DNA of 32,000 bases, taken from positions 960,001-992,000 of the forward strand of contig NC_014408.1 of assembly GCF_000145295.1 (NCBI RefSeq). Direction: 5' to 3'. The notes below the pieces were generated by a model. That model searched no databases and was not told the DNA's origin. It saw nothing but the letters and a program-made list of their open reading frames with translations. Position 1 is the first letter of the stretch; each line of letters opens with the position of its first letter. The translations under genes and the position numbers were made by a program. Positions 6,989 through 32,000 of this stretch are shown here, piece after piece. This DNA is from Methanothermobacter marburgensis str. Marburg (GTDB lineage: Archaea > Methanobacteriota > Methanobacteria > Methanobacteriales > Methanothermobacteraceae).

Positions 6989-9499
6989 CTAAATACGTTT
7001 ACCCTTTTCGATGGCCCTCGCAATACCTGAACATTCCTTCAAAATAATTCTCTCTTTAAATGCAGAGGCAACCCTTCCAATGGACTCAACTGTTCTCACC
7101 ATTTTGTCAAGCCAGCTGAAAACATCTCCAGGATACGCCTGAATCTGATATCTTGAGAGAAGCCCCTTACTTATATCCCTGGGGTCCCTGCCACTCATTC
7201 TCTCCCAAAGTATATATTCCGATAATTTTCGCTGAATACACCCACAGAAGGGTCTGTCCATGCATTCACAGGAAAGAAAATCCATCTGTATTCCAAGAAC
7301 AGCCTCCTGTAGATTTTTATCAAGTTTTATGAGATTATCCCCATTGGATATTATATCAAGGGTTGAATCCGCTGTCAATCGGATTGAAACATTGGCGCCA
7401 ACTGCCCTCGTTAATCCTCTATGCATTCTTCCTGAGAGATACGCGCCCTCAAATGGTTCAAGTTCAACCGCAATATCAAGAGGCTTTTTACTGGATTTGA
7501 GGTTCCTCCTTATGTACTCCGCATCCTCCACATTTAGAAATGATCTGGAGACGGCCATCCCATAATCAGTTGCCCTGAGTTCTCCTTTCCTGCTTATAAG
7601 ATCAGATGACTCAAGGAAATCAAGCGCCATGTCTCCACCCATGGTCCATGGCACATCAGGGGTGATATCATGCTCTGATTCAATGGCCCCCGAGGTTATA
7701 TCCGCCAGAAGATTTTCAAGAATGTTTTCATCTGTATGTTGAACCTCAACAGGTTCAGGACCGCTTTCAAGGAGCTCAAGGGCCACAGACTCCTCGGAAT
7801 CACCATCAAATTCCATGCCAATTTCTGCAAGAACATAGACAACTCCCCGGTCATGGTAGGATGGTCTGCCTGCACGTCCAAGCATCTGTGAAAACTCATT
7901 GGGGGTGAGCCAGCGGTTACCCATGAGGAGAGTTTCAAATATAACCTGTGATGCCGGAAAGTCCACTCCCGCTGCAAGTGCCGCTGTGGTGACAACTGCG
8001 GCGAGTTTCTGGGATGCAAAGGCCTTCTCTATCCGCTGCCTTTCAGAGTAGGATAAACCTGCATGATATGCTGCTGCACTGACCCTGTTCCTTGTGAGGT
8101 ACTCTGCAATGATCCTGGTTTTCCTGCGGGAATTTGTGAATATTATTGTCTGTCCCTGGAACCCCTTCCTTGACTTCGAAGAGAACTCGCGTTCTGCAAG
8201 CCCCAGTATGATGTTCTTCTTTTCCTCACCGCTCCTTGAGAATATGAGGTGTCTTTCAAGTGGCACTGGCCTTTTATCATATTCAACCAGCTTCAGACCA
8301 AAATCTGATGCTATTTCCGCGGAGTTTTTGACTGTTGCAGAGAGTGCTATGATCTGGGCGTTCGGGAATAACCTTTTTATCCTCCATATCATGCCGTTAA
8401 GTCTTGCTCCCCTCTCCTCATCCTCAAGGGTATGTATCTCATCAACCACCACCACGCCCACATCGCCGAGGATACCTGCCTTCCCTGACCTCAGGATGTA
8501 GTCGATCCCCTCGTAGGTACCAACTATTATATCCGCATCGGCTATATCGGTATCGGGAATCCTCAGCTCACCCTTTGCCTTTATCCTGCTCATACCAACC
8601 TTTATGGCTGTTTTGAGTCCAAGTGAAGAGTATCTCTTCTTAAAGTCCCTGTACTTCTGGTTTGCAAGGGCAACGAGTGGTGTGAGGTAGATGAACCTTT
8701 CACCCCTCATCGCCCGGGGGATACCTGCAAGTTCCCCCACAAGGGTCTTTCCACTGGCTGTCGCAGATACAACCATAAGACTAGCGCCCTCAAGGAGACC
8801 AGCATCAACTGCAAGGACCTGCACTGGCCTCAGCACCCTGCTGCCCTCTCTTCTTAGAATCCGCTTAAATTTCTCAGGAAGCTCAAGCCTGTCAATGGGC
8901 ACCTTTGGTGTTCTGTCTGCTGTTGCCGTCACCATATCATAGAGTGTCAGTTCATGGTTCGCCAGCGGGTCGAAGCGGGGGGACATCATCTCAAGGACCC
9001 TCTCAAGGCTTACACCCCTCCTGATCAGCCTCCTGAAGTTTCTGAATGCCGATTTATCCATGCCCGCCAGTTTGAGCTCCCTTCTTATTACCTCATCAAC
9101 GCACCTTGAGCATATGATCTGGCCCTCATGCTTCGTTGATGCCTTTGAGCTCACAAGGGTCACATAGCCCTCATGGAGGCAGTGCTGGCATACCCTTGCA
9201 TACCTGTACCTGATACCGTGATTCTCAAGCAGTTCTTCAAGTTCCTCATCCCGCCCTGTTAGAAACACGGCCTGTTTCCTCAGGAGTTTTATGGCCTCTG
9301 AGGGTTTTCTAAGGGTTTCCCTTTCATCCTTCTCCACTGTGAACCTTGCTATTCTGGGGCCAGAGGAGGTTTTTTTGATTTTCAGCTTTCCCCAGTACCC
9401 TGGCTTTCTTCGGGTGTTAAGGGCACCCCTGGGACTTCCAGCAGGTATAAAATCAACTGATCTTTTCCTTCGATTCAGGACTATCATTATATCTCTCAA
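6989..9499 (-). CDS. Superfamily 2 Ski2-like helicase with N-terminal zinc ribbon (ASH-Ski2-type)
   Basis: 836-aa ORF. Helicase motifs: Walker A ATASGKT, VVVDEIH, LSAT and QMLGRAGRP. The N-terminus has CQHC-x24-CSRC, the arrangement described for the euryarchaeal ASH-Ski2 group. A further CxC-x6-CxC cluster sits near the C-terminus. Confidence 0.75.
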   Translation of the reverse strand: MRDIMIVLNRRKRSVDFIPAGSPRGALNTRRKPGYWGKLKIKKTSSGPRIARFTVEKDERETLRKPSEAIKLLRKQAVFLTGRDEELEELLENHGIRYRYARVCQHCLHEGYVTLVSSKASTKHEGQIICSRCVDEVIRRELKLAGMDKSAFRNFRRLIRRGVSLERVLEMMSPRFDPLANHELTLYDMVTATADRTPKVPIDRLELPEKFKRILRREGSRVLRPVQVLAVDAGLLEGASLMVVSATASGKTLVGELAGIPRAMRGERFIYLTPLVALANQKYRDFKKRYSSLGLKTAIKVGMSRIKAKGELRIPDTDIADADIIVGTYEGIDYILRSGKAGILGDVGVVVVDEIHTLEDEERGARLNGMIWRIKRLFPNAQIIALSATVKNSAEIASDFGLKLVEYDKRPVPLERHLIFSRSGEEKKNIILGLAEREFSSKSRKGFQGQTIIFTNSRRKTRIIAEYLTRNRVSAAAYHAGLSYSERQRIEKAFASQKLAAVVTTAALAAGVDFPASQVIFETLLMGNRWLTPNEFSQMLGRAGRPSYHDRGVVYVLAEIGMEFDGDSEESVALELLESGPEPVEVQHTDENILENLLADITSGAIESEHDITPDVPWTMGGDMALDFLESSDLISRKGELRATDYGMAVSRSFLNVEDAEYIRRNLKSSKKPLDIAVELEPFEGAYLSGRMHRGLTRAVGANVSIRLTADSTLDIISNGDNLIKLDKNLQEAVLGIQMDFLSCECMDRPFCGCIQRKLSEYILWERMSGRDPRDISKGLLSRYQIQAYPGDVFSWLDKMVRTVESIGRVASAFKERIILKECSGIARAIEKGKRI

Positions 9500-11178: not shown

Positions 11179-11595
11179 TTAATCCTCTTTCACAAGGTGT
11201 TCTTCAAGCTGTGACCTTATATCAGGGGGTATTGGCTTTTTCCTCTGTTCAATGAAATCGTAGTGGACCAGGACAGCCTTACCCTTTGCCTTGAGTTCCC
11301 CGTCCTGCCATGCCTCGTGGCCTATGGTGAAGGATGAGTTTCCTATGTGTGTTATGTAGCTTCTTATCTCCACGTCACTCCCATAGTACATCTGTGCAAG
11401 GAAGTCGAATTCTGTCCTTACAAGGATTAGTTTCCACTTCTCATAGCTGAGGTCAAGGTCGGGTGTGAACATCCTGAAGATGGGGTTTCTGCCCTTCTCA
11501 AACCAGACCGCTAGGACAGTGTTGTTAACGTGTCTGAGACCATCTATATCCCCAAAACGTGGTGTCACCGTGATTTTGAACATCCTATCATCCAC
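11179..11595 (-). CDS. Acyl-CoA thioesterase, hotdog fold (4HBT/YbgC family)
   Basis: 138-aa ORF with the N-terminal motif VTPRFGDIDGLRHVNNTVLAVWFE, typical of 4HBT-type thioesterases. Its GTG start overlaps the upstream TAG by 1 nt. Confidence 0.8.
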   Translation of the reverse strand: MDDRMFKITVTPRFGDIDGLRHVNNTVLAVWFEKGRNPIFRMFTPDLDLSYEKWKLILVRTEFDFLAQMYYGSDVEIRSYITHIGNSSFTIGHEAWQDGELKAKGKAVLVHYDFIEQRKKPIPPDIRSQLEEHLVKED

Positions 11596-12167
11596 TAGAA
11601 TGGTGTGTAGACAACTGCCAGTATCCTTGCATCATTTTCCCCTGCTGCGTGGAGGTGGTGGGGTACAACAGAGTCATAGTATATGCTGTCCCCTTCACCG
11701 AGCCTGTACTTCTCCTGTCCATAGATGACCTCTATTTCACCCTCCAGGACGTATATGAACTCCTCCCCCTCATGGGATGATAGTTCAAAGTCGTCGCTGT
11801 GGAGTTCAACATCGATCAGGAATGGCTCCATGTGCCTGTCGCTTTTGCCGGCACCAAGGGAGTGGAAGTTGAGGTTGCTTGTATCCGCACTCTCCTCATA
11901 GCCTGAAAAGTGTATGACCCTCTGGGTTTTTCCTTTTCTGACTATAACAGGTTCATCCTGAACCCTGTCATCAAGGAGTGTGCCGAGCCTCACTCCAAGT
12001 GTCCTTGAGATCTTTATGAGGGGTGTGAGTGATGGTAGAATGTCTCCTTCCTCTATTTTCTTGATGAGTTCCCTATTAACTCCACTTCTTTCTGCAAGTT
12101 CCTCCAGTGTGATGTTCTGGTTATCCCTGAGCTGTTTTATTCTTTCTCCCACAGTGTTTGCTGGCAC
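11595..12167 (-). CDS. XRE-family HTH transcriptional regulator with C-terminal cupin domain
   Basis: 190 aa. The HTH is [32 protein letters not shown]. The cupin motifs are [14 protein letters not shown] ... [20 protein letters not shown] lies upstream of the GTG start. Confidence 0.85.
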
Positions 12168-14551: not shown

Positions 14552-14567
14552 CGGAAGTTGATTTCCG
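14552..14567 (+). promoter_or_regulatory. NrpR-type nitrogen operator (CGGAA-N6-TTCCG)
   Basis: cGGAAgttgatTTCCg is an exact match to the GGAA-N6-TTCC operator defined for NrpR at Methanococcus maripaludis nif/glnA promoters. It is located where the transcription start is expected, ~25-30 nt after the TATA box. Confidence 0.65.
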
Positions 14568-20951: not shown

Positions 20952-21662
20952 TTATTCTATGAAAGTGCTCTTTCTCTTGTTAAGGTAAATTCCAAGTCCC
21001 ATGAGCGCCAGTGTCCCCAGCACAACATATATTATGGTGTTTATGCCTGGAACCGTCAGTGGCGTCATTTTCATGCTCATGGCGCTGTTCACATTTGGAA
21101 GCACAATGGCAGCTGTCAGGAAGTAGAGACCGGCAAAAAGCATGAAGTTGCCCAGCAGAACAGGGTAGGGTTTATTGATTGCTGATGCGACTCCATTGGC
21201 AAATAAATAGAAGAACGCTATGAAGGCTGCCAGAATTATTCCGGAATATTTGCCGAGTGTGATTGCTGATACACCGAGTATGGGTGATACAAGTATTATG
21301 CTGACGATCACCGCCCCGAAACAGCAGGGGCAGGGCGCCACCATTGCAACGCACGCAGTCTTTGCTGTGTCCCTCCTGTGTTCCTTCCACTCACGGAGGG
21401 TGTGCACACCGGCAAATATCAGAATGGATGCCATTATGATTGTTATCAGTGAACTGTAGGTGTTGAAGAAGCCCTGAATCGAGTTCATGTAGGCATTTGC
21501 AAGGGCTGCAAGACCATATATGCCAAGACCGTAACCCGCCGTTATTAGGGCGGCCATCTTCCTTGATAGCCCCGCGAAACCCATTGCCAGTCCAATCTTC
21601 ACGCCGAATATCAGTAAAACCGATAGGATTCCCGCCTGCCAAAGTAGGTTTGCCATGTCCAT
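20952..21662 (-). CDS. Polytopic membrane protein with intramembrane CPCC motif (DUF2162-like predicted transporter)
   Basis: Hydrophobic throughout, with ACVAMVAPCPCCFGAV in a TM helix (Cys codons at 21321-21332). I prefer ATG 21662 (AGGTG 6 nt upstream) to the track GTG 21671. The gene ends 16 nt before the ExbB-like start. Confidence 0.75.
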   Translation of the reverse strand: MDMANLLWQAGILSVLLIFGVKIGLAMGFAGLSRKMAALITAGYGLGIYGLAALANAYMNSIQGFFNTYSSLITIIMASILIFAGVHTLREWKEHRRDTAKTACVAMVAPCPCCFGAVIVSIILVSPILGVSAITLGKYSGIILAAFIAFFYLFANGVASAINKPYPVLLGNFMLFAGLYFLTAAIVLPNVNSAMSMKMTPLTVPGINTIIYVVLGTLALMGLGIYLNKRKSTFIE

Positions 21663-21692
21663 GTTCCACACCTTCTCTTTTCAACTTTATAA

Positions 21693-21722
21693 TAATTACT
21701 ATATAAATTAAATTATTACTAT
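21693..21722 (-). promoter_or_regulatory. Putative promoter of the permease/ExbB/ExbD operon: TATA box bracketed by two motif copies
   Basis: The minus strand reads ATAGTAATAA-tttaa-TTTATATA-GTAATTA. The TATA box is at 21700-21707, and the motif copies are at 21713-21722 and 21693-21700, whose motif cores start 20 bp apart. Confidence 0.4.
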
Positions 21723-21865
21723 TTCGCAGGATTAAAGCAGTATTTTAATACCATATTTCTTATTACTATTAGGCCCTAATGAGTAATAACTCATTCAAAC
21801 AATTTTTATTAGAATTAAAGTAAATCTGATATTTAATGTTTTCTAAAAAATAAATTATGGTGGGC

Positions 21866-23680
21866 CTACCTCCTTCCAGGTCCAAGGAAGTATCCCACAC
21901 CCACAAGTACCAGTATGGCTGCTATACCTGCCACTCCATATAACGGGAACTCTGTTCTCTGATTGACCGCTGAATGAGTTTCTTTCACCTCATAGGATTT
22001 CTGCTGACCTGCCTCTTCACCGGCTGAATCCTGTGAAGAATCTGAAACAACTGCCTGTGAAGCCGCGGAGGTTCTTCCAGCAGAACCATCAGCGGAAGTT
22101 CTTCCAGAGGATCCGCCACCTGTGGCTGAAGGGCCTGTTGTGGGTCCTGTGGATGGATTCTCACCTGGATTCACATCACCGGATGGTTCAGGTGCAAACA
22201 CCGACGCCCCTGTTGCCGCATAGAGTGCTGCAGTGAATTTCTTCCTGAGATCAGAGGACATGTACTGGCTGATCCACTTCATCAGTTCCCTGTCACCGCA
22301 GACCGATCCTGAACATGAAACACCATTCTCGGCAACGTAATTTCCAAGGCACTCTGCAATGAATGCAAGCTGCTCACTCCTGGCATTCCACTGGCCCCTG
22401 TTTGCCATCTCGGCAAAATGTGCCAGTATGTCCATTGCGGCGTAGGGGTTCTTTGAATAGGCTGTCTTCAGTCCAAGATTGTATTTATCTGCAACCACAG
22501 CGTCATAGTACTCATCCCAGAAGCCACTGTCAAGGAGTTCAGGCACCGTGTATTCCCATCCCACCAAGTGGGATGTGTACTTGGCTATGGTCCTTGGCCC
22601 CTGATACCCCTCATTAATGATTGCCTTGATCCACTCGGGATTCAGGTACCTTGTTCTGTATTCAATGGCTATAAACTGCTTCAGTGACATGACCCGGGGA
22701 TTGCCTGGGTTTGCATATCTCAGTACGTAGAGTTCCGGGGCCCTTCCATTGTTCATCATCTCGATAGCCATTGAAAGGCCGCCGAAGTAGTCGAAGTAGT
22801 CGTCGTTATCAACAACCCCATACAGGTTGGTGTTTCTGCTGTGGTATGCCGTTTGAATACCCTTGAGGAGTTCCTTGAAGGTTTCGGGCATTGAAACGCC
22901 CCAGGAACGTTCACTGTATGCATGGCTCATCCTGTTGAAGTAGATGTCTGCAAGTTCGCTTCTGTCGTTCCAGGTCCATGACACCTCTGTACCCTTACTG
23001 ACACCGGCACCGTAATCACCAACAGGCGGTGCGAAGATCCTTGTGATGGCGATTTCACCTGCATCAGTGGCGTTAAGACCCGCCTGCATGTACCTCAGGG
23101 TATCATTGATCCAGTGGAGTGCAATGTAGTTGGTGCGCAGAGGCTCGCTTCCCCTGAAGTTTGTATACTTGGCATCAACAAGTGTCTGCAGCACATGGTC
23201 AAGTGATGTTTTAAGTGACGGATAGGCCGCGACTATCTCACTGTATGAAGCGGCAAGGGCAACCCTGTATGCCCTGTCCATGTTGATGAGGAGCCTCGGG
23301 AACAGGTCCCTGAAGAGTCCGCTTGTTGTTACGATTGGATCCACCCTGGGCCTTTCTGTGAAGTTTGAAAGTCCAGATGCGGACCTTACTGAATTGATAT
23401 CTGCGAGTAGCTGTGATAGTGGTGTTGCCTTTATGTTTCCAGCCGAACCCGTTGATGACCATGTTGGCTCCACACCCATGAGTCTGAGTACGAAGGATAC
23501 CATTGTACCGTCATCACGGACAGTTTCAACACACCATACAACGGCAGCCACCTTCTCAGGTATGACATCGAACTGTACAAGTGCCATGTCAGCCAGCCTC
23601 TTACCCAGGTTCCATGCCGTCCTTGTCGGCATGAGGTTCTCTGATACCGCATAGAAGTTACTGCCTGTTGGAAGTGCCAT
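21866..23680 (-). CDS. CobN/Mg-chelatase-H family protein, C-terminal fragment with Ser/Gly/Pro linker and C-terminal TM anchor
   Basis: It starts MALPTGSNFY (canonical CobN LPTGRNFY), and YGVVDNDDYFDYFGGL is the CobN-type DDYYQYLGG motif. The C-terminus is a low-complexity linker followed by FPLYGVAGIAAILVLVGVGYFLGPGRR. It continues the 23658-26207 ORF after a 1-nt frame change at 23681-23684. Confidence 0.85.
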   Translation of the reverse strand: MALPTGSNFYAVSENLMPTRTAWNLGKRLADMALVQFDVIPEKVAAVVWCVETVRDDGTMVSFVLRLMGVEPTWSSTGSAGNIKATPLSQLLADINSVRSASGLSNFTERPRVDPIVTTSGLFRDLFPRLLINMDRAYRVALAASYSEIVAAYPSLKTSLDHVLQTLVDAKYTNFRGSEPLRTNYIALHWINDTLRYMQAGLNATDAGEIAITRIFAPPVGDYGAGVSKGTEVSWTWNDRSELADIYFNRMSHAYSERSWGVSMPETFKELLKGIQTAYHSRNTNLYGVVDNDDYFDYFGGLSMAIEMMNNGRAPELYVLRYANPGNPRVMSLKQFIAIEYRTRYLNPEWIKAIINEGYQGPRTIAKYTSHLVGWEYTVPELLDSGFWDEYYDAVVADKYNLGLKTAYSKNPYAAMDILAHFAEMANRGQWNARSEQLAFIAECLGNYVAENGVSCSGSVCGDRELMKWISQYMSSDLRKKFTAALYAATGASVFAPEPSGDVNPGENPSTGPTTGPSATGGGSSGRTSADGSAGRTSAASQAVVSDSSQDSAGEEAGQQKSYEVKETHSAVNQRTEFPLYGVAGIAAILVLVGVGYFLGPGRR

Positions 23681-26207
23681 GGGGTTTCCTGATGGGGTCG
23701 TTACCTGAACGTGGTGTTATGAACCCTCCGTTAAGGGCATCGAGAAGCGAGTTCATCTCTGAACCGAAGCTCTGATTTATAAGGTAAGCGTATCCCTTTG
23801 CCCTGTTAAGGAGTTCTATTATCTGTGCATCGTCTGTTAGGGTCTCCGGTGCTCTTCCCCTTATTATCTGGAGTATCCAGTCCACTGTCCTGTTGTTAAC
23901 CTCTTCTGCCTGGATCGCCGTGAGTTTATCGAAGTCCATGCCCATGCTGGAGGCTATAAGCCTCTGTAGCGAAGGGCTGGATGGTCCTCCGTCTGCGGAT
24001 ACTATGGCTGCTGCAAGTAGAGCCACCTCTTCATCGGTCCAGGTAAGGCCGAATGTGTGGAGCCCGACAGGCATGAGGGTCTGCTGGAGCATCACAAGGT
24101 AGTCATCAACCTTTTCAACGTCGTCCTCTGTGAAGTTTTCAGGGTTTATGTTGATCTCCGGGGCGATGTTTAGCTTTATAACCATGTTCCTTATGGACTC
24201 AAGGTACTCAGCCTTAAGGGGGCTTGCATCCGGTGTTCTTGAGTAGGTGTCTATAAGTGCCCTGAGTTCGAGGAGGTCACCGTAGAGCTGGGTTGTCTTA
24301 AGTGGTGGTGTTAGATGGTCAACTATAACGGCGTATCCCCTTCTCTTGGACTGTATGCCCTCACCCACACCGTCCACGATGTATATGTATACTGAGGGCT
24401 TTGTACCGGCACATATCTGTGAGAAGTCAAAGTTGCTGAGTGCGACCTGCTTTCTTGGGAGCCACTCGTATGTTGCATGTCTGCCTATGTGGACCTGGGC
24501 ATCCGCATTGAACACCGTGTTAACCCATGCATACCATGCAAGGTACTGGTGTGGTGGTGCCACGACCGTGCTGTGGTAGAGTTTATCAACGTCTGCCTCC
24601 CATCCCCTCTGGGGTTCAGGGCCAATGAATACGTTGCCAAACATTATACCTGGTATGACGATGTACTTTCTGCCTTTTCTCTCCACTGTCATGACATTAC
24701 CTGGTGGGGCGCCCCATCCATTGAATCCAGGAACTGCAAGGGACTGGAATTCATTTTTGAAGTTATAGAACATGCTCCACGGTGCATCTGTGCTCTGACC
24801 TGTCCTTGCATTGTTGAGAACTGCTTTCAGTGCTTCTGTCATGTTTCTTATGAGAACTGATGCCTGCTGTGCCCTCTCAGGGTAGGTGTTTGCAAGTGAT
24901 ATCATCTCAGAGGACCACTTATCAAGGGTATTCAGGGCTGCGGTGTATGCAGTGTCACTGGAGACGTAGCTGAGCGCGAGCTTAACCATCTCCTCAATGT
25001 AACCCACAGGACCCTCCACGACCTGTTTTCTCGCAATCGGGTTCATGGTCTGGAACCATGCATAGTATTCCTCCGCATCCCAGAGGATGATGGAGGTTTT
25101 ATTTGCAAGTTTCTCGAGTTCCCCCGGTGCCCATGTTGCAACGTTTATTCCCCTCTCAGTGAGGAGCTTCACAAGGTCATCAGCCGTTGAAGGGAACCCT
25201 GAAACACTGTACCCTGCACTCTGCAATGCCTTAAGAATTTCAACTATAGTCTCCGGGACGTTGAGGTAGCTTGCACCTATGTTACCCTTTCCCGGTGGAT
25301 AGTTGTAGTATATGAGTGCTATCTTCTTCTCAGGGTTGGTGAGGTACTTCAGCCTGACCCAGTTACCGATCCTGTCTGCAAGGTAATCCATCTGCTCCTC
25401 TATCGGAGTGTATGCGACGATTTCAACCCCTGTTACCGGGTCAATGCTCTTTGCGGGTGCTGCGACGAAGATGGGTTCAATGATCCCCTGTGTCTCGGGT
25501 ATCGCTATCTGGTAGTAGGTGTCGCTCCAGAGCAGCCCGTCATCCGAGAGCAGCCATTCACCCTCCTCCCTCTTGGTTGATATCATGGCCCTGAAGACAG
25601 GCACATTCATCTTCTCAAGTAGAGCAGCGGTCTGATTGACGAATCCTGAGCCAAGGGTGAATGTTGTGAAGCTTACAAGGGCATCTATCCTGTACCTGTA
25701 GTAATCACGGTTTGCCTCGTATTCTGCTGCGGTGACAACCCTTGATGGGTCTGCCGGGTCGTAGGTGAAGAACTTGACCATGGCTGAGTAGATGTTGAGT
25801 GGCTGTGTCCCGTTAACACCTGAATAGGCACCCACCACGGGTATGACATTCATTCCACGTGCAGTGAGTTTTGCTATTATGCTGTCAAAGTGGGCCATGT
25901 CCCCTGAGAGGAGTACGCTGTCAAGTCCCGCGATTCCAATGGTGGGCCTTGATGGGTTAAGGGGGTATGCTGCAAGGTACTCTGCGAGGCTGGTGAAGAC
26001 CCTGCCGTCCCTGTAGAGCATCTCTGCAGGGAGAGTTACGGGTGCTGATGGTTCCCATGCTGAGGGCCAGGTCCCTCCATTCATCACCGTGAAGTTCTTG
26101 AGAAGGAGTTTGAACTGGTTTTCATAGTTGATGGTCCCCTTCTTTGCATAGTAGAGACCGTAGGCTACCCATGGGGCAAGCTGGGGGTATGTGTTCACGT
26201 ATGCCAT
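23658..26207 (-). CDS. CobN/Mg-chelatase-H family protein, central fragment
   Basis: 849-aa ORF. VHIGRHATYEWLPRKQV matches the CobN HxGxHGxxEWLPGK motif. It ends ...SGNDPIRKPHGTSNRQ*, whereas the canonical sequence continues DPIRxPxxLPTGxN, which is found in the next frame. Confidence 0.88.
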   Translation of the reverse strand: MAYVNTYPQLAPWVAYGLYYAKKGTINYENQFKLLLKNFTVMNGGTWPSAWEPSAPVTLPAEMLYRDGRVFTSLAEYLAAYPLNPSRPTIGIAGLDSVLLSGDMAHFDSIIAKLTARGMNVIPVVGAYSGVNGTQPLNIYSAMVKFFTYDPADPSRVVTAAEYEANRDYYRYRIDALVSFTTFTLGSGFVNQTAALLEKMNVPVFRAMISTKREEGEWLLSDDGLLWSDTYYQIAIPETQGIIEPIFVAAPAKSIDPVTGVEIVAYTPIEEQMDYLADRIGNWVRLKYLTNPEKKIALIYYNYPPGKGNIGASYLNVPETIVEILKALQSAGYSVSGFPSTADDLVKLLTERGINVATWAPGELEKLANKTSIILWDAEEYYAWFQTMNPIARKQVVEGPVGYIEEMVKLALSYVSSDTAYTAALNTLDKWSSEMISLANTYPERAQQASVLIRNMTEALKAVLNNARTGQSTDAPWSMFYNFKNEFQSLAVPGFNGWGAPPGNVMTVERKGRKYIVIPGIMFGNVFIGPEPQRGWEADVDKLYHSTVVAPPHQYLAWYAWVNTVFNADAQVHIGRHATYEWLPRKQVALSNFDFSQICAGTKPSVYIYIVDGVGEGIQSKRRGYAVIVDHLTPPLKTTQLYGDLLELRALIDTYSRTPDASPLKAEYLESIRNMVIKLNIAPEININPENFTEDDVEKVDDYLVMLQQTLMPVGLHTFGLTWTDEEVALLAAAIVSADGGPSSPSLQRLIASSMGMDFDKLTAIQAEEVNNRTVDWILQIIRGRAPETLTDDAQIIELLNRAKGYAYLINQSFGSEMNSLLDALNGGFITPRSGNDPIRKPHGTSNRQ

Positions 26208-26794
26208 TAGACGGGATTCATTGGAGTTTTTAAGGTCGTACAGGATTGTGTTTTCGTGTCGGTGTTTCCTATGACTGATGATGGAATACCGTCAAATATT
26301 CTGACTCCATTTATCTGTGACATGCTGGTAAGGTCAGGGTCGCTTTCAAGGACCATGAATATCTTGTTTGACCTGTTGGATGCTATTTCAGGGTAGGCAT
26401 TCATGACGTTCCTGAAGTTTCCTGAGTCAAAGAGCCACTCTGCAATCACTATATCTGCGGATTCTATAAGCGCCCTGAGTTCCTCGGGGTTCATGCTGGC
26501 TATCTGCGCTGTGGTCCTCACCTCAAAGCGTACCGTCCATGTAGATTTATTCTCTGGATCGTAACCCGGCTGTGATGGATTTATGAGGTCCATGACCTTC
26601 TTTGCAGCGTCATTGGTCATCTTGGAACTTGTAGATGAATGTATCACAAGCACCACAGGGTCTTTAATCTGATCCGTGCCATTTACTGTCAAAGGATCTG
26701 TATCAACCTGCGTAGTGTTGTCTGCTGCTGCCACGGTCTGGCAGAGCATTGCCATGAGAAGAACTGCTGTTACTGTCATCAGATGTTTTCTCAT
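26207..26794 (-). CDS. CobN-like protein, N-terminal fragment with Sec-type signal peptide
   Basis: The N-terminus MRKHLMTVTAVLLMAMLCQTVAAA is a signal peptide. The remainder (VVLVIHSST..., ADIVIAEWLF..., KIFMVLESDPDL) resembles the first CobN domain. GGAGGTGA lies 6 nt upstream of the ATG. The stop overlaps the next ATG (TAATG), and the downstream frame is open for 27 more codons upstream. Confidence 0.75.
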   Translation of the reverse strand: MRKHLMTVTAVLLMAMLCQTVAAADNTTQVDTDPLTVNGTDQIKDPVVLVIHSSTSSKMTNDAAKKVMDLINPSQPGYDPENKSTWTVRFEVRTTAQIASMNPEELRALIESADIVIAEWLFDSGNFRNVMNAYPEIASNRSNKIFMVLESDPDLTSMSQINGVRIFDGIPSSVIGNTDTKTQSCTTLKTPMNPV

Positions 26795-26904
26795 AACTTT
26801 TCACCTCCTTTCATTTTTTTATATGGTATTATGCTGTACTCATAGAAAAACATTTATTATTACTGAATCAGGGATGTATAAAAAATTAGTATTATTAGAT
26901 CCAT

Positions 26905-26946
26905 ATTATTACTTAATTTATATAATTCCCTGAGAAAAGTAATAAT
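26905..26946 (-). promoter_or_regulatory. Putative promoter of the CobN-like gene: TATA box flanked by an inverted 9-mer pair
   Basis: ATTATTACT (26905-26913) and its exact reverse complement AGTAATAAT (26938-26946) flank TTATATAA (26918-26925). A third ATTATTACT lies at 26856-26864. Confidence 0.4.
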
Positions 26947-26978
26947 CGGACTGAAACAAAAAAAATAAAGGGGAGGTT

Positions 26979-29873
26979 TTATTTTCCTGCTCCGCCTCTC
27001 AGGAATCCGAATGCCACGAGACCTGCTGCAACAAGAACCCCGACGATACCGTAGACGTACCATGCTGATGAACCGCTGCCGCTACCTGAGGAGGTTACGT
27101 TTTCAACCTCATAGGCCCTGGCAGGGGCTGGTTCCTCTGTGGATTCTGAAGCAGCGCCAACCTCCGCAGGTGATGCCACGCTTGCTGAAAGGCCAGGTGA
27201 AACACCGCCTGTCCTTCCTGTAGTTCCGGTTGACCCATGGACACCGCCGGTTGAACCACCTGGAAGGCCTCCTGGAACTCCGCCAGGAATTCCGCCCTGG
27301 TTGCCGCCATCCACAGGTACCTGAGGTAGAATGTCTGCAAGTGTCCTGTCTGCAGGTATGCCCTTAACAAAGGCAAGTGGACTGCCACCATCTGCACCTG
27401 AAAGTATCATCTGAAGTTCAGATTCGGTTATGTATCTCTCTGCCTCTATTTTCACGACTGGGGCTGCTGTCATGTAAGATGGTGTTTCACCCTTGTAGAG
27501 GCTTATGAAACCTGCTATCTGTTTTTCTCTTTTGGCCTCATCGGTTGTGCAGTCACTCACATCAAACTGCGGCCACTGGAAGCCGATGATAACAGCCCTT
27601 CCAACCTTTTTGACACTGTCCCAGATGATCAGGATACCTTCAATTGAACCTCCAAAGTCATCGTCATCGGACATGGTATCTGCGCTTGGAAGCCTGAGGT
27701 TGAAGTAGGTTCCCTGTCCAGGTGAGACTCCCAGCCTGTAGACTATTGCATCGTCCTTGCAGTAGATGGTGTTACCCAGGTAGATGTAGCTCTCGTTCTC
27801 ATTGAGGGGGTAGTTGTTGAATATGTGCTCGGTTATGATGTAACCCGGTGATACACCTGGACATGCATGGTCATGGAAGAGGAATGTGAGTATCTGGTCG
27901 TAGGGCGGGTCGTGTCTCCATGCGTTTGCTATAGTCTGGATATTGAACCATCCATCCATTGCAAAGACCTTTGAAACCTTGCCTGTAAGCGCTGTGCTGT
28001 TAAGGGTCCTTGGACCAATGTCGTTCACGTATTTGCCGTCTGATGCATTGCTTGCAACTAGCTGTCCTGTTGCAGGGTCATAGTAGATGTACACCGCATC
28101 CATTGTAACTCCATCATAGCCCCTGAGTACAAATGTGAACCAGAGTGGCTTCCAGAGCGGCCTGTGGATTGGTAGGAGCGTTGCCCTGCTGAGCCTTGAT
28201 CCGAGAACATCAAATATTCCATCCCATGCCGCGCTCGTATCCTGTCCGTTGAGCCTTGAATAACCTGCTGATGTGAGTACAACAAGGTCCCTGTCATCCT
28301 TCTCAAGGTTTATACCCTTTTCCTGAAGGAATAACTGCTTAGCAAGGTTTGCAGCATCAGCACCGATCTTCTTTATCTGCTCGTAGGTCAGGGTGCCCTG
28401 TGGCAGTGGATTGTTTTCACGTGTTGCATTTGGAAGTCCCAGGCTGTCAATGTATGCCATGTCAAGGCCATGGGCCCTCTGGGCGCTTATATTGTACACA
28501 TTTCCATTCGCATCCCTGACTGTTGTGTTGCTTGCTGAACCAAGGAGATAGTAGTAGTGGGTTACGTTGAGGTCGGTAAGTTCCCTTACTATGGTGACGA
28601 GGGATGTTGGGTCCTGTTTAAGTTTACTTATGAGCCATGCGTTGAATTCAAGCTCTGTCCTCTTACCTGTCTCCTGCTGGAACTGCTGCCTCAGTGCTTC
28701 CTTGTCGAACTTCATGATTATAAGGTCGCCCTTGAGGGTTTTTGGGTTCCATCTGATGAATCCAACAAGGTTTGTGTCCGCACCTGTGGCTGTTGTGTTG
28801 AAACCGCTGTATGATCCTCCCTTACCCGGTGTTGTGTCAAGGAACATGAGCAGGGAGTCATCGTCTGAGTCGCCCGGGACACCTATGGTGATGTAGTTTG
28901 TTATCTCACCTGGAGAGCCCGGTGATGTGATGTCCATGATCGGTGGGTAGTACTTGAGCAGTGTGAGGCTCATTGCGTAACCGCTTATGGTACCGAGGCA
29001 CATGTGCCCGTGGAAGGCCGCTGCCCTCAGGAGGTCTGCTGGAGCATCCTGCATCCATGCATTGGCAAGGCTTGCAACAGGGAATGCGTGTTCCCCGTAT
29101 TTACTTACCAGAAGGTTCCAGTTGGCCTCTGTCATGTTCTTTAAGAGGTCGATGGTGTATATCGGTTTCCCATTGACTGTTCTGATGACAACAGGTGTTG
29201 TGCTTGCATTCTTGAAGAACACTCCAGTTAACGTGTTCCCCTTCTGGAGGATGAAGAACGTGTCCAGGGGATCCACGGGAGTCTTCCTGATCATCAGGAG
29301 GTTGCCCTTACCGTAGGTGACAATTCCTCGTGCCTGGTTCAGTATGCCCTCAATCACATCCTCTGATGTGTCGCCCCTGTACTTGACAATGCCTGCGGTT
29401 GTGATTACAAGGACATTTCCACTTGAGAAGTTGAGGATCTCATCTGCCTTCTTTGTTATTTCCCTTCCGAGCCTGTAGGCGTCGGTTGCATTCATCTTGA
29501 ATGAGAGGTGTGCATAGTAGTTCGGATCAGAGTTATCGTAGGGGTTCCTGGATAGTGTGAAGTGGTGTAAAATGTCCTTGTAGCCGGGTGCTGTTATTTT
29601 TATTGTGAACCTGGTTGTTTCCGTAACCACAGGGGGCTGGAAGGTTATCTTTGTCAGGTTGCTTGCCGGGTCAAACCTCTTTGTGAAGTTAAGCTTTTCA
29701 CCGTTCTCATCACTGATGTAGTTTATGTCTGGATTGATGCGGGTGTTGTCATCTGCGAATTCATACGTGACATTCACCCCCACCTCACATTCTGGCGTTA
29801 CTGCTGAAGCAGAGCCCGTCAGTGCAAAAGCAAAGAGAAGAGCCATTAGAACCATGAAATACTGTCTTCTCAT
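26979..29873 (-). CDS. Secreted, C-terminally membrane-anchored protein with two FmdE-like domains
   Basis: 964 aa. The signal peptide is MRRQYFMVLMALLFAFALTGSASA, and N-x-S/T sequons are numerous. There are two copies of the FmdE-type motif: ANAWMQDAPADLLRAAAFHGHMCLGTISGY (about 28977-29081) and ANAWRHDPPYDQILTFLFHDHACPGVSPGY (about 27840-27941). A Gly/Pro/Ser linker and the TM helix WYVYGIVGVLVAAGLVAFGFL follow. GGAGGTGA lies upstream of the ATG. Confidence 0.8.
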   Translation of the reverse strand: MRRQYFMVLMALLFAFALTGSASAVTPECEVGVNVTYEFADDNTRINPDINYISDENGEKLNFTKRFDPASNLTKITFQPPVVTETTRFTIKITAPGYKDILHHFTLSRNPYDNSDPNYYAHLSFKMNATDAYRLGREITKKADEILNFSSGNVLVITTAGIVKYRGDTSEDVIEGILNQARGIVTYGKGNLLMIRKTPVDPLDTFFILQKGNTLTGVFFKNASTTPVVIRTVNGKPIYTIDLLKNMTEANWNLLVSKYGEHAFPVASLANAWMQDAPADLLRAAAFHGHMCLGTISGYAMSLTLLKYYPPIMDITSPGSPGEITNYITIGVPGDSDDDSLLMFLDTTPGKGGSYSGFNTTATGADTNLVGFIRWNPKTLKGDLIIMKFDKEALRQQFQQETGKRTELEFNAWLISKLKQDPTSLVTIVRELTDLNVTHYYYLLGSASNTTVRDANGNVYNISAQRAHGLDMAYIDSLGLPNATRENNPLPQGTLTYEQIKKIGADAANLAKQLFLQEKGINLEKDDRDLVVLTSAGYSRLNGQDTSAAWDGIFDVLGSRLSRATLLPIHRPLWKPLWFTFVLRGYDGVTMDAVYIYYDPATGQLVASNASDGKYVNDIGPRTLNSTALTGKVSKVFAMDGWFNIQTIANAWRHDPPYDQILTFLFHDHACPGVSPGYIITEHIFNNYPLNENESYIYLGNTIYCKDDAIVYRLGVSPGQGTYFNLRLPSADTMSDDDDFGGSIEGILIIWDSVKKVGRAVIIGFQWPQFDVSDCTTDEAKREKQIAGFISLYKGETPSYMTAAPVVKIEAERYITESELQMILSGADGGSPLAFVKGIPADRTLADILPQVPVDGGNQGGIPGGVPGGLPGGSTGGVHGSTGTTGRTGGVSPGLSASVASPAEVGAASESTEEPAPARAYEVENVTSSGSGSGSSAWYVYGIVGVLVAAGLVAFGFLRGGAGK

Positions 29874-29928
29874 ACCTTTTCACCTCCTTTTATCTTTAAT
29901 TATTAATAATGTACAGAACTATAATGGA

Positions 29929-29945
29929 AGTAATAACATATATAA
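29929..29945 (-). promoter_or_regulatory. Putative promoter of the double-FmdE gene: TATA box immediately followed by the TTATTACT motif
   Basis: The minus strand reads gaTTATATATgTTATTACTtcc. The TATA box is at 29938-29945 and the motif at 29929-29936, ~55-65 nt upstream of the start codon at 29873. Confidence 0.45.
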
Positions 29946-30007
29946 TCATTTTGTTAATACCTTTACCTGTCGTGAAGGGATAAAAGTAATACTCAATTTT
30001 ACTTGAT

Positions 30008-30038
30008 AAAAAAAGGATTCATGGGGAAACCCCATGAA
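30008..30038 (-). terminator. Hairpin plus T7 terminator downstream of the NAS-like gene
   Basis: The minus strand reads TTCATGGGG-ttt-CCCCATGAA-tcc-TTTTTTT. The stem is a perfect 9 bp (30018-30038), and the T-run corresponds to plus-strand A7 at 30008-30014. Confidence 0.6.
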
Positions 30039-30230
30039 CTGATTGATGGAGGGAAAAATTTAATATCCAACACCGTACTGGTGTTACACTTATATCTAAA
30101 ATATGATGAGTATTTAACACTTACTATTTCATTTGTATTAATAATTAATGGGTTCCTGAGGATTCCACAGTAATAATCAACTCATCTGAAGTTTAATTGA
30201 ACTCAGGAGAGCTTGATTGGATTGAAGGTC

Positions 30231-30596
30231 CTAATCAGGGGATTTGAATACAAGTACAGATGTATTGTTAACCTTACCCGATGGTAGAACAATGCCTGCC
30301 CTCCTGAAACCCCTTACATCCTCATCACCTACAGGTGAGTAGAGTATGGCCCTCATCCCGGTGTAGGTCCTGTAAATGACCCTTGTATCCCCATCAACAT
30401 AGCGGTGGATGTTCCTGAAAACCCTCTCCTTTGGCTCTGCAAGGGCCGCCACAAGCACTATGTCGAATTCAAGGTCCCTTATTGCTGTCTCATCACCGTT
30501 GATTACCCTAACATCCCCTTCAAGTCCAAGTTTCTCTATGACCCTTCCTGCAAGTTCCGCCAGTTCGGGTTCAACTTCAACAACCGACACCCCCAT
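30231..30596 (-). CDS. Nicotianamine synthase-like protein (MtNAS type), C-terminal fragment
   Basis: GVSVVEVEPELAELAGRVIEKLG, FDIVLVAALAEPKERVFRNIHRYV, IYRTYTGMRAILY and LPSGKVNNTSVLVFKSPD match my memory of the M. thermautotrophicus thermonicotianamine synthase. The frame is open upstream through LTGILLASVHG to the C/G runs at 30629-30637. Confidence 0.8.
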   Translation of the reverse strand: MGVSVVEVEPELAELAGRVIEKLGLEGDVRVINGDETAIRDLEFDIVLVAALAEPKERVFRNIHRYVDGDTRVIYRTYTGMRAILYSPVGDEDVRGFRRAGIVLPSGKVNNTSVLVFKSPD

Positions 30597-31033
30597 GCCA
30601 TGGACACTTGCCAGGAGAATCCCTGTGAGGGGAGGGGCCCTCCCCCAATAAAGACTATTCTTTCACCCTCCCTGTACCTGCCAAGGGTTGCCTCATTTTT
30701 AAGGAGCTCGATGTAGCGAGGGTAAAAGTAGAACGACCCTAGCGTCTTCCACGGGTCCTCTGAGGCAAGGACCTCCTCAGCCTTTTCAATTTCAAGTTTC
30801 ATCCCGAGGTTGACGTAGAATCTCCTTATTACCCTGAGGGCATGATTCATCCCGGGATCATCAAGGATGTGCTTTGCAGATTCAAAGTCAATGGACTCAT
30901 CATGGGCTATCTCCTCAATCTCATCAAGGAGGGGGATTACGGCTTCAACGTTCATCCCATGTATCCCATAATCCATACCCTCAAGTCTTGATGCTATCGA
31001 CCTGATCCTATCCCAGTAGATGTAACAGCTCAT
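30536..31033 (-). CDS. Nicotianamine synthase-like protein, N-terminal fragment (frame lost at 30629-30632)
   Basis: MSCYIYWDRIRSIASRLEG..., FYFYPRYIELLKNE and ERIVFIGGGPLP are followed by nonsense (SQGFSWQVSMAWGCRLL...). The expected continuation LTGILLAS is in the frame of the 30231-30596 ORF. Confidence 0.8.
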   Translation of the reverse strand: MSCYIYWDRIRSIASRLEGMDYGIHGMNVEAVIPLLDEIEEIAHDESIDFESAKHILDDPGMNHALRVIRRFYVNLGMKLEIEKAEEVLASEDPWKTLGSFYFYPRYIELLKNEATLGRYREGERIVFIGGGPLPSQGFSWQVSMAWGCRLLKLNPNWRNLQEGS

Positions 31034-31362
31034 GAATATACTTCCATGTAGTTTGTGGACGATGCTCCTTTAATTGGATTAATAAACGGATCCAAGGTTT
31101 ATGGATGATCCCCCATCCAGATCTGAATTAATAACAGACCCCCTATGTTATCATAAACAGGCATCCTTTATTCGCCGGCACATATTAGTTTTGCCATGGT
31201 ACTTATAGGAGATATGGATACATATTATACACAAGGAATGTAGTATTACATATAATCCTTAAAATCGTGATAAAGTATTACTTTGGGGTGGTGTTTATTA
31301 TCAGAGTAACGACACCGGGAGAAGAGTAGGATCCTAAATCAGTCAGGGCATTTCTCTTCAGG

Positions 31363-31875
31363 ATGATAAAGAGGGAGTTCGGTTTTGATTACATACCCGA
31401 GTACCACAGGGACATAGTCAACCTTGAAGAATACTACCTGGAACCTGAAAGGAACACCTTCCTCCTTGCCTGCATTGGTGACAGGCTGGTTGGAACCCTC
31501 GGCCTCCGCGCCTATGACCGTGAATTCAGGGGCCTCAATTACGACCCTGAAAGGACGGCCAGCCTCTGGAGGGTCTTTGTGCATGAGGACTGCAGGAAGA
31601 TGGGTGTTGCATCATACCTTGTGGAAATTGCAGAATCCTTTGCAGCAGAGAAGGGCTATACCCGTATCTACCTTCACACTCATAAACACGTTGAGGGTGC
31701 CCTTGAATTCTGGCTCTCAAAGGGTTACAGCATAGTTATTGACACTGACAATGAACTTGGAACCGTCCACATGGAAAAGTCCCTTAACAGGAGTTCAATG
31801 GGAAACCAGGATTTCAGTGGAACCTGTTCTACCATAAAAAGAGGAGGAACAGGGCATCAGATGACATTTTTTTGA
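31363..31875 (+). CDS. GNAT-family N-acetyltransferase (as called from ATG 31363; N-terminal strand lies upstream of an in-frame TAG)
   Basis: The GNAT core is FLLACIGDRLVGTLGLR, WRVFVHEDCRKMGVASYLV and YTRIYLHT. In the same frame, VVFIIRVTTPGEE-TAG-DPKSVRAFLFRM precedes the ATG. Confidence 0.75.
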   Translation: MIKREFGFDYIPEYHRDIVNLEEYYLEPERNTFLLACIGDRLVGTLGLRAYDREFRGLNYDPERTASLWRVFVHEDCRKMGVASYLVEIAESFAAEKGYTRIYLHTHKHVEGALEFWLSKGYSIVIDTDNELGTVHMEKSLNRSSMGNQDFSGTCSTIKRGGTGHQMTFF

Positions 31876-32000
31876 GCGAAAGGATTGCTTGATGCCCTGT
31901 TTGAGCTGGCTTCCGTTGATATCCTAGGAGGAATTCATGCTCAGAGATATACTTGGCAGAGGATATATAAATACTTTTTGAAAAAAAATTATTACTCATT

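Follow-up and report, generated by a model that had tools for sequence, protein, structure and literature searches.

We examined a 32,000-nt window of the Methanothermobacter marburgensis str. Marburg genome (positions 960,001 to 992,000 of NC_014408.1), in which an 8-mer (TTATTACT/AGTAATAA) recurs between genes for a predicted transporter, a CobN-like chelatase, and other metal-related proteins. The functional unit is a 37-bp dyad of 6-bp half-sites with 25±1 nt between them, and the 8-mer is its half-site. The dyad has a fixed spacing, is conserved, and is restricted to a particular set of genes. We think it probable that the dyad is the operator of a nickel-responsive regulator, most probably NikR, and that across the Methanobacteriaceae it marks the genes of the nickel-starvation regulon. 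Three parts of this proposal are inferences: which protein the regulator is, that it represses rather than activates, and that the DNA bends.

The repeated 8-mer is half of a dyad

The initial annotation of the window listed nine exact copies of the 8-mer and three one-mismatch copies (21693-21700, 29985-29992, and 31275-31282), and we found all of them. The exact copies are wholly intergenic and lie in four regions (21672-21865, 26795-26978, 29874-30230, and 31876-32000). A fifth region (31034-31362) has copies of the 7-mer only. As had also been claimed, exact copies are missing from the window's remaining intergenic DNA (~2.1 kb) and from all of its coding DNA. (There are about 30 more one-mismatch copies across the coding DNA, which is the number expected by chance.)

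The coding DNA of the window is ~50% GC, the intergenic DNA is AT-rich, and the copy-bearing regions are 22-31% GC. The concern had been raised that the motif might be no more common than in any AT-rich DNA, but this is not the case. A first-order Markov model of the intergenic DNA only (34% GC) predicts 0.33 copies, and a model of the five copy-bearing regions (31% GC) predicts 0.20, instead of 9. Across 2000 Markov simulations, the highest count was 3. Dinucleotide shuffles of the whole window gave 0.9 copies on average and at most 4.

What was overlooked initially is that the copies have partner half-sites, such as TTAATA at 21745-21750 or GTATTA at 26889-26894, at a fixed spacing of 25 nt. 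We surveyed 62 loci with DUF2162 homologues from Methanobacteriaceae genomes and a few further loci (~1.06 Mb in total; these fetched loci have names that begin with L). The spacer from TATTAC to the following GTAATA is 25 nt in 56 cases, 24 nt in 8 cases, and 26 nt in 6 cases, while no other length from 0 to 70 nt is found more than 5 times. If the half-sites are generalised to TAWTAC...GTAWTA, these counts become 76, 11, and 8; other lengths from 0 to 40 nt reach 8 at most, and 49 nt is found 19 times. The sequence logo from 72 sites reads (G/T)TATTAC ... GTAATA(A/C). The consensus is a(G/T)TATTAC-N25-GTAATA(A/C)T, and the pattern (G/T)TATTAC-N25(±1)-GTAWTA(A/C) describes an operator that spans 37-39 bp. 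The window contains 4 strict dyads in 1.2 kb, versus 0.007 expected. Most of the copies of the 8-mer fall in the dyads that we call A, B2, B1, C, D, and E or in a weak dyad (Table 1); the copies at 21760-21767 and 21782-21789 form a palindrome with a spacer of 16 nt instead. At 26905-26946, an exact inverted pair of 9-mers had been described, and the pair is indeed exact and slightly longer: 10-mers at 26905-26914 and 26937-26946.

The half-site's 7-mer, GTAWTAC, is itself pseudo-palindromic. Across the fetched loci, it is 5.5-fold denser in intergenic DNA than in coding DNA, and ~65% of its intergenic copies are in dyads with spacers of 24-26 nt. Additional half-sites are found at +19 and -13 nt relative to the dyads, and in 35 of the 56 dyad sites, GTAATA-N19-TATTAC forms a third half-site. 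We found no sites with spacers of 13 or 14 nt. The N16 palindrome (21761-21788) is the only pair that comes near the spacing of NikR operators, at 23 bp, and it is lineage-specific; L004 has it with a spacer of 17 nt. Because the palindrome is missing from L002 and L066, we ruled it out as the core site.

Within the spacer, base composition varies with a period of 10 bp: positions 6-10, 16-20, and 26-30 are AT-rich, and the positions between are enriched in GC. This phasing fits a minor groove that faces the same side as the major grooves of the half-sites, with one complex on one face of bent DNA.

Conservation and gene content

The initial annotation proposed an operator that is common to several promoters, and suggested looking for its conservation in related species and listing the downstream genes. 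Both lines of evidence bear out the proposal. The half-sites and their spacing are kept while the sequence of the spacer is replaced, and across the fetched loci, the dyads are confined to a small set of metal-related genes. At promoter A (of the DUF2162 transporter operon), the window and L004 have diverged from L002 and L066 beyond recognition, save for the half-sites, the 25-nt distance, and the TATA region. At promoter B (of the CobN-like chelatase), L004 retains TATTAC-N26-GTAATA with an altered spacer. The architecture of dyad A recurs in L004, L190, and L191; the last two, from two further Methanothermobacter species, carry the dyad in canonical form at the DUF2162 promoter in the syntenic position. 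Altogether, three Methanothermobacter lineages and many genomes of Methanobacterium have the dyad.

All 70 of the exact dyads (N24-26) in the fetched loci are intergenic. The genes downstream of them encode DUF2162 transporters (27), CobN-like chelatases (10 loci), or CbiM (9). The promoters of CbiM (Nik/CbiMNQO-type) often have two or three tandem dyads, and the most symmetric dyads, GTATTAC-N25-GTAATAC, precede CbiM/NikM genes. Other targets are divergent pairs of GNAT with NAS-like (nicotianamine-synthase-like) or radical-SAM genes (dyads between GNAT and one of these are found in L016, L018, L020, L022, and L036), ~1000-aa FmdE-domain proteins, an MFS transporter, CODH, DUF3344/PKD surface proteins, and an ABC ATPase. 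In total, at least 8 unrelated families are preceded by dyads. Several of the dyad-bearing promoters are orthologous, so they are not independent.

We also scanned metagenomes with a three-half-site pattern. About three quarters of the at least 120 matching loci are chance matches in AT-rich DNA. Among the matches listed, ~26 are credible sites, and these are upstream of the same gene families. In two metagenome contigs (L078 and L110), an 8-nt unit (CAGTATTA / CAGTAATA) is repeated in long tandem arrays, which match the pattern by construction; this is unrelated satellite-like DNA. A scan of genome contigs with a single CobN-like open reading frame (ORF) gave no relative, and we used an alignment of DUF2162 instead. 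The closest homologues of CobN (Methanothermobacter sp. THM-2, JGI contig; L001 and L003) belong to a paralogous locus, which also has a dyad. Directly upstream of that dyad, L001 of Methanothermobacter sp. THM-2 has a ~49-bp tandem duplication (8745-8845) with the palindrome ACTGTAATACAGT.

Induction at low nickel

Nickel is the limiting cofactor of methanogenesis (in hydrogenases, in F430 of methyl-coenzyme M reductase, and in CODH). The initial annotation had suggested that the regulator may respond to metal, and published proteomics points to nickel specifically. In a 2025 study of how methanogens rewire their core metabolism under nickel scarcity (Nature; PMC12350162), nickel limitation of M. 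marburgensis raised MTBMA_c10530 by ~35x (from ~5e6 to ~2e8, supplementary tables) and MTBMA_c10580 (105 kDa) by ~300x (from ~2e7 to ~6e9). CobN1 was ~300-fold higher at low nickel and NikR1 was ~30-fold higher. From the gene order and the protein sizes (66 kDa and 105 kDa), which fit MTBMA_c10530-c10580, we infer that the window's transporter operon corresponds to c10530 and its FmdE-domain protein to c10580. The dyad-bearing genes and the nickel stimulon would then share the c10530 transporter, c10580, and CobN-like proteins. That study reports protein levels, without linking them to a cis-element or a regulator's site, and the words "promoter" and "motif" are absent from its main text. None of c10530, c10580, and CobN1 were induced under iron limitation. 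This differs from what is expected for the iron boxes of Fur or DtxR, and the dyad is also unlike their 19-bp palindrome (GATAATGATnATCATTATC).

Placement on the core promoter

According to the initial annotation, the 8-mer lies beside TATA boxes. The association with promoters holds up, but we rejected a lone 8-mer beside the TATA box as the unit, in favor of the N25 dyad. The position of the dyad relative to the TATA box varies from promoter to promoter.

There are three placements of the dyad: its right half-site may end 5-7 nt short of the TATA box, it may enclose the TATA box, or an additional, third half-site may lie past the TATA box. The first placement is that of the transporter promoters, where the dyad abuts the TFB-recognition element (BRE) and the TATA box. 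The DUF2162 promoters have the layout agTATTACw - 25 nt - GTAATAATAC - 5-7 nt - TTTATATA/TTAAATAG - kTATTATATA - ~25 nt - ribosome-binding site (RBS) - ATG, and the position of the TATA box of promoter A is kept across 27 of them. Because the RBS is visible, the functional TATA box directly follows the right half-site, so the right half-site overlaps the BRE. For promoter A as well, the distances to the RBS and the ATG suggest that this is the functional box. The CbiM promoters and promoter B have a TATA-like element within the dyad. The promoters of CobN and of the FmdE-domain proteins, including promoter C in the window, have a third half-site past the TATA box, at a constant distance of 19 nt. 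The "type 2" layout of dyad C matches FmdE-big and CobN promoters in L005, L007, L010, and L053.

At promoter A, one copy had been described as downstream of the TATA box. That copy is on the BRE (upstream) side, because the genes run on the - strand and the claim was made from + strand coordinates. What is conserved downstream of this TATA box, in an alignment of the window with L004, L002, and L066, is TTATTATA (21688-21695), not the one-mismatch copy at 21693-21700. This conserved element would be a third half-site or else belong to the proximal promoter.

Although the placement of the dyads varies, they always overlap the core promoter, as the sites of repressors typically do, and this favors a repressor that excludes TBP/TFB or RNA polymerase. 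Since the dyad abuts or encloses the TATA box or gains a third half-site, a bound protein would block these factors. We propose that a nickel-sensing ribbon-helix-helix tetramer of the NikR family would contact the two half-sites, which are three turns apart, from one face of the DNA, and that the DNA would probably bend toward the bound protein. Under nickel sufficiency, binding would close the core promoter to TBP/TFB or RNA polymerase. When nickel is scarce, the protein would leave, and the genes for uptake, chelation, and metallophores would be expressed.

Similarly, MDR1 of Archaeoglobus, NrpR of methanogens, and TrmB/Phr of Thermococcales are archaeal repressors that occlude promoters. 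Like theirs, the operators described here overlap the BRE/TATA or the start (as predicted from sequence) and control a regulon that responds to a nutrient signal. The dyad differs from their operators in its half-site sequence and its 25-nt spacer; theirs are compact palindromes, such as GGAA-N6-TTCC, which we take to be the nitrogen operator of NrpR.

Is the regulator NikR?

NikR half-sites from two independent sources resemble those of the dyad. In Helicobacter pylori, footprints and ChIP gave the pentamers TRTTA/TAWTA (PMC5385501), and the dyad's core, TATTA/TAWTA, fits them. In δ-proteobacteria, a NikR box was predicted upstream of nikMNQO (GTGTTAC-N13/14-GTAACAC; PMC545781), and the dyad's 7-mer GTATTAC is one base off from GTGTTAC. 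More broadly, the dyad shares with the operators of E. coli (GTATGA-N16-TCATAC), H. pylori (TRTTA-N15-TAWTA), and the δ-proteobacteria its inverted short half-sites, which are on the same face of the helix and have the core T-R-W-Y-A. Comparing the logo to TRTTA/TAWTA, GTGTTAC, and GTATGAT, the half-sites agree with TRWYA / GT(A/G)T(G/T)A. As with known NikR operators, the dyads are at promoters for nickel uptake or utilisation (CbiM/NikM, ABC ATPase, MFS, DUF2162/ExbB, CODH, CobN-like, and NAS-like), and the regulon is on at nickel shortage, if orthology to the proteome's nickel-responsive proteins is accepted from gene order and sizes.

Of 102 genomes of Methanobacteriales, 99 reportedly encode NikR (PMC10617489), and M. 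marburgensis has three NikR paralogues. A bona fide NikR (139 aa, with Pfam domains NikR_C and RHH_1) is encoded inside one of the dyad-regulated clusters (L122). The initial annotation held that the regulator is encoded outside the window, and tblastn indeed gave no NikR-like gene within it. We considered the window's helix-turn-helix-cupin gene (11595-12167) as a candidate, but it is not conserved near dyads. All-against-all clustering of the proteins encoded in the clusters gave no conserved transcription-factor gene. A search of the literature, which did not cover Rodionov et al. 2006, found nothing relevant that links NikR with TATTAC. That study (J Bacteriol 188:317) is cited for NikR site predictions, reportedly in eight methanogen genomes, and may list related methanogen sites already.

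Several observations weigh against a NikR repressor. The cores of the half-sites are 32 bp (three turns) apart in an operator of 37-39 bp, while in all characterised or predicted NikR operators, they are 20-21 bp (two turns) apart and the operator is 25-28 bp. A NikR tetramer of ordinary size (such as the 139-aa protein of L122) should not span 32 bp on straight DNA. The dyad is also absent upstream of the three nikR genes that we inspected (L047, L048, and L122), so autoregulation, which would tie NikR to the site, stays hypothetical. The NikR proteins of L047 and L048 are of a 127-aa NikR2-like type, and their genes are beside a paralogous transporter cluster without dyads; a protein search with this type gave only close orthologues. 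The dyads of the transporter promoters lie upstream of the TATA box, where archaeal activators also bind. Furthermore, we treated the proteome as that of a sister strain or species, its proteins were matched to the genes of the window from their sizes and the order of the genes rather than from sequence, and the dyads were surveyed in selected loci. The extra half-sites at +19/-13 nt and the archaeal BRE/TATA context also set the dyad apart from the known NikR operators, and binding of NikR is a proposal here. Because the spacing does not agree, we do not class the dyad as a proven NikR operator, even though the half-site and the regulon match.

So we also considered that a nickel-responsive regulator other than NikR binds the same operator, either as another oligomer or as two cooperating dimers on the GTAWTAC pseudo-palindromes, which are 31 bp apart. 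The three-turn spacing, which is unlike any known NikR operator, and the pseudo-palindromic 7-mer would both be explained, as would the nikR promoters without a dyad and the absence of nikR genes beside most of the clusters. However, we think this rather unlikely: the half-sites agree with those of NikR from two sources, the content of the regulon is classical for NikR (NikM/CbiM), the clusters share no gene for another regulator, and nearly all Methanobacteriales have NikR. Alternatively, the dyad could be an upstream activating site, where a factor that is active or abundant at low nickel (such as apo-NikR1) recruits TFB/TBP beside the BRE. NikR1 is abundant only under nickel limitation, and H. 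pylori NikR reportedly can both activate and repress (PMC9860126). Also, in the 27 DUF2162 promoters, the whole dyad precedes the TATA box, at a fixed distance of 5-7 nt. This seems inconsistent with the CbiM promoters and promoter B, where the dyad encloses the TATA box or the start and a bound protein would block, and with the CobN and FmdE-protein promoters, where the half-site past the TATA box is in a position to block rather than to recruit. We think activation improbable.

Finally, the dyads might have no specific function: AT-rich DNA could match by chance, the motif could be a general element of promoters in the genus (flanking the BRE/TATA), or duplicated promoter modules could have left it behind. 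The low GC content of the regions and the orthology of several of the promoters would be compatible with this. But only 0.2-0.3 copies are expected even at the regions' own composition, the ~2.1 kb of other intergenic DNA lacks copies, there is one sharp peak of spacer lengths, the half-sites persist as the spacers diverge, and the dyads precede at least 8 unrelated families and are never within genes. The spacer peak, the intergenic targets, the null models, and the footprinting effectively refute a lack of function, and we give it very little credence. An operator of a nickel-responsive repressor, probably NikR, remains our preferred explanation.

Features of the window

Table 1. Dyads, promoter elements, and genes in the window.
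Feature	Start	End	Strand	Description
Upstream palindrome	21761	21788		TATTAC-N16-GTAATA; copies 21760-21767 and 21782-21789; lineage-specific
Dyad A	21714	21750	-	DUF2162/ExbB/DUF2149 promoter; TATTAC-N25-TTAATA on + strand, TATTAA-N25-GTAATAAT in gene sense; includes copy 21713-21720
TATA box, promoter A	21700	21707	-	TTTATATA on - strand, 5 nt past GTAATAAT
Downstream element, promoter A	21688	21695	-	TTATTATA, consensus kTATTATATA; between TATA box and predicted transcription start; logo positions 55-64
Dyad B1	26907	26944	-	TATTAC-N26-GTAATA; CobN-like chelatase promoter; TATA-like ATTATATAAAT within spacer
Dyad B2	26858	26894	-	TATTAC-N25-GTATTA; ~60 nt upstream of ATG 26794; includes copy 26857-26864
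Dyad C	29955	29991	-	TATTAC-N25-GTATTA on - strand; promoter of 964-aa FmdE-domain protein; includes one-mismatch copy 29985-29992
Third half-site and TATA box, promoter C	29930	29945	-	TATTAC at 29935..29930, 19 nt past dyad; flanks TATA ATTATATAT at 29938-29945
Weak dyad	30139	30175	-	TAATAA-N25-GTAATA on + strand; right after NAS stop codon; type-1-like promoter follows; includes copy 30169-30176
Dyad D	31244	31280		TATTAC-N25-GTATTA; divergent NAS/GNAT intergenic region; includes copy 31275-31282
Dyad E, left half-site	31990	32000		Partner GTATTA 24 nt on, past the window's end; complete in L066 (10628-10663)
DUF2162 / MotA-ExbB-like / DUF2149 operon	19960	21671	-	Predicted transporter (Pfam)
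CobN-like chelatase	21866	26794	-	Three ORFs (Pfam)
FmdE-domain protein	26979	29873	-	964 aa (Pfam)
NAS-like gene	30231	31033	-	Nicotianamine-synthase-like, two ORFs (Pfam)
GNAT acetyltransferase	31363	31875	+	Divergent to NAS (Pfam)

Dyad E is between the convergent GNAT and DUF3194 genes, with a TATA-like element adjacent (L066 10600-10700), so no gene stands out as its target. It may drive transcription of an antisense or non-coding RNA, or it may be a relic. Past the stop codon of the NAS-like gene, the - strand of 30005-30176 has the weak dyad and a promoter-like stretch that resembles the transporter promoters. This is followed by ~95 nt with two hairpins, the second of which is ATGGGG-TTT-CCCCAT and a T-run (-24.8 kcal/mol, z = -3). 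These could be the 3' untranslated region and terminator of NAS, or a small nickel-regulated RNA. An Rfam scan of 21000-32000 had no match, so an RNA element is unsupported; the dyads are upstream of the predicted transcription starts.

The NAS-like gene is split into overlapping ORFs (30231-30596 and 30536-31033), a split that the near-identical contigs L066-L069 share, whereas homologues elsewhere consist of a single ORF of ~267 aa. Either a frameshift has been conserved, or the gene is a pseudogene in this lineage. The CobN-like chelatase, with three ORFs in the window, is one 1706-aa ORF in L004 (331-5451). In L190 (3475-9792) and L191 (2447-8824), it is fused to surface-type DUF3344/CARDB domains, giving proteins of 2105-2125 aa; the fusion hints at an extracellular chelatase-like protein. 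Identity between the window and L066 is a mosaic: 99.6% at 27241-32000, 92% at 22185-27209, and 78% at 21265-22011. A pattern of this kind points to recombination, or to rapid turnover, near promoter A and the 5' end of the operon for the transporter.

Small conserved proteins of 66-90 aa, with the motifs ...NIDGTLEIFIEK / FDENxIFVEKD, recur in the nickel clusters of Methanobacterium (L055 4301-4522, L063 9567-9791, L122 2035-2307, L036 11794-12018, and others), with a dyad ~250 nt upstream. The two members that we scanned had no Pfam match, and the window encodes none of them. Elsewhere in the window, upstream of the second amtB-glnK pair, GGAAGTTGATTTCC (14553-14566) fits GGAA-N6-TTCC, the presumed NrpR pattern; the window has 2 matches to this pattern, versus 0.7 expected.

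Implications

A bolder form of our proposal is that a NikR-type sensor uses a previously unseen three-turn geometry on wrapped or bent DNA, and that this one operator defines a complete nickel-starvation pathway. We consider this possible but doubtful. If it is true, then the pathway would comprise a nicotianamine-type "nickelophore" (NAS-like, GNAT, and radical-SAM proteins), an MFS exporter or importer, an ExbB/DUF2162/DUF2149 uptake machine, surface or soluble CobN-like chelatases, and NikMNQO. The operator might even reach the proteome's nickel-dependent hydrogenase switch (hmd, elp, and frh). And if NikR binds the dyad, then a family whose structures are well studied would recognise operators in a new way, with a spacing of three turns.

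A sharply defined operator that is common to the family would be a handle for identifying the regulator among the three NikR paralogues; the 2025 nickel study (PMC12350162) gave no link from sensor to promoter. It would make the nickel regulon predictable from sequence in any genome or metagenome-assembled genome of the Methanobacteriaceae. It could also provide a nickel-controlled promoter for the new genetic system of Methanothermobacter. For the uncharacterised DUF2162/DUF2149/ExbB-like, CobN-like, ~1000-aa FmdE-domain, and NAS-like proteins, it would imply a role in nickel acquisition.

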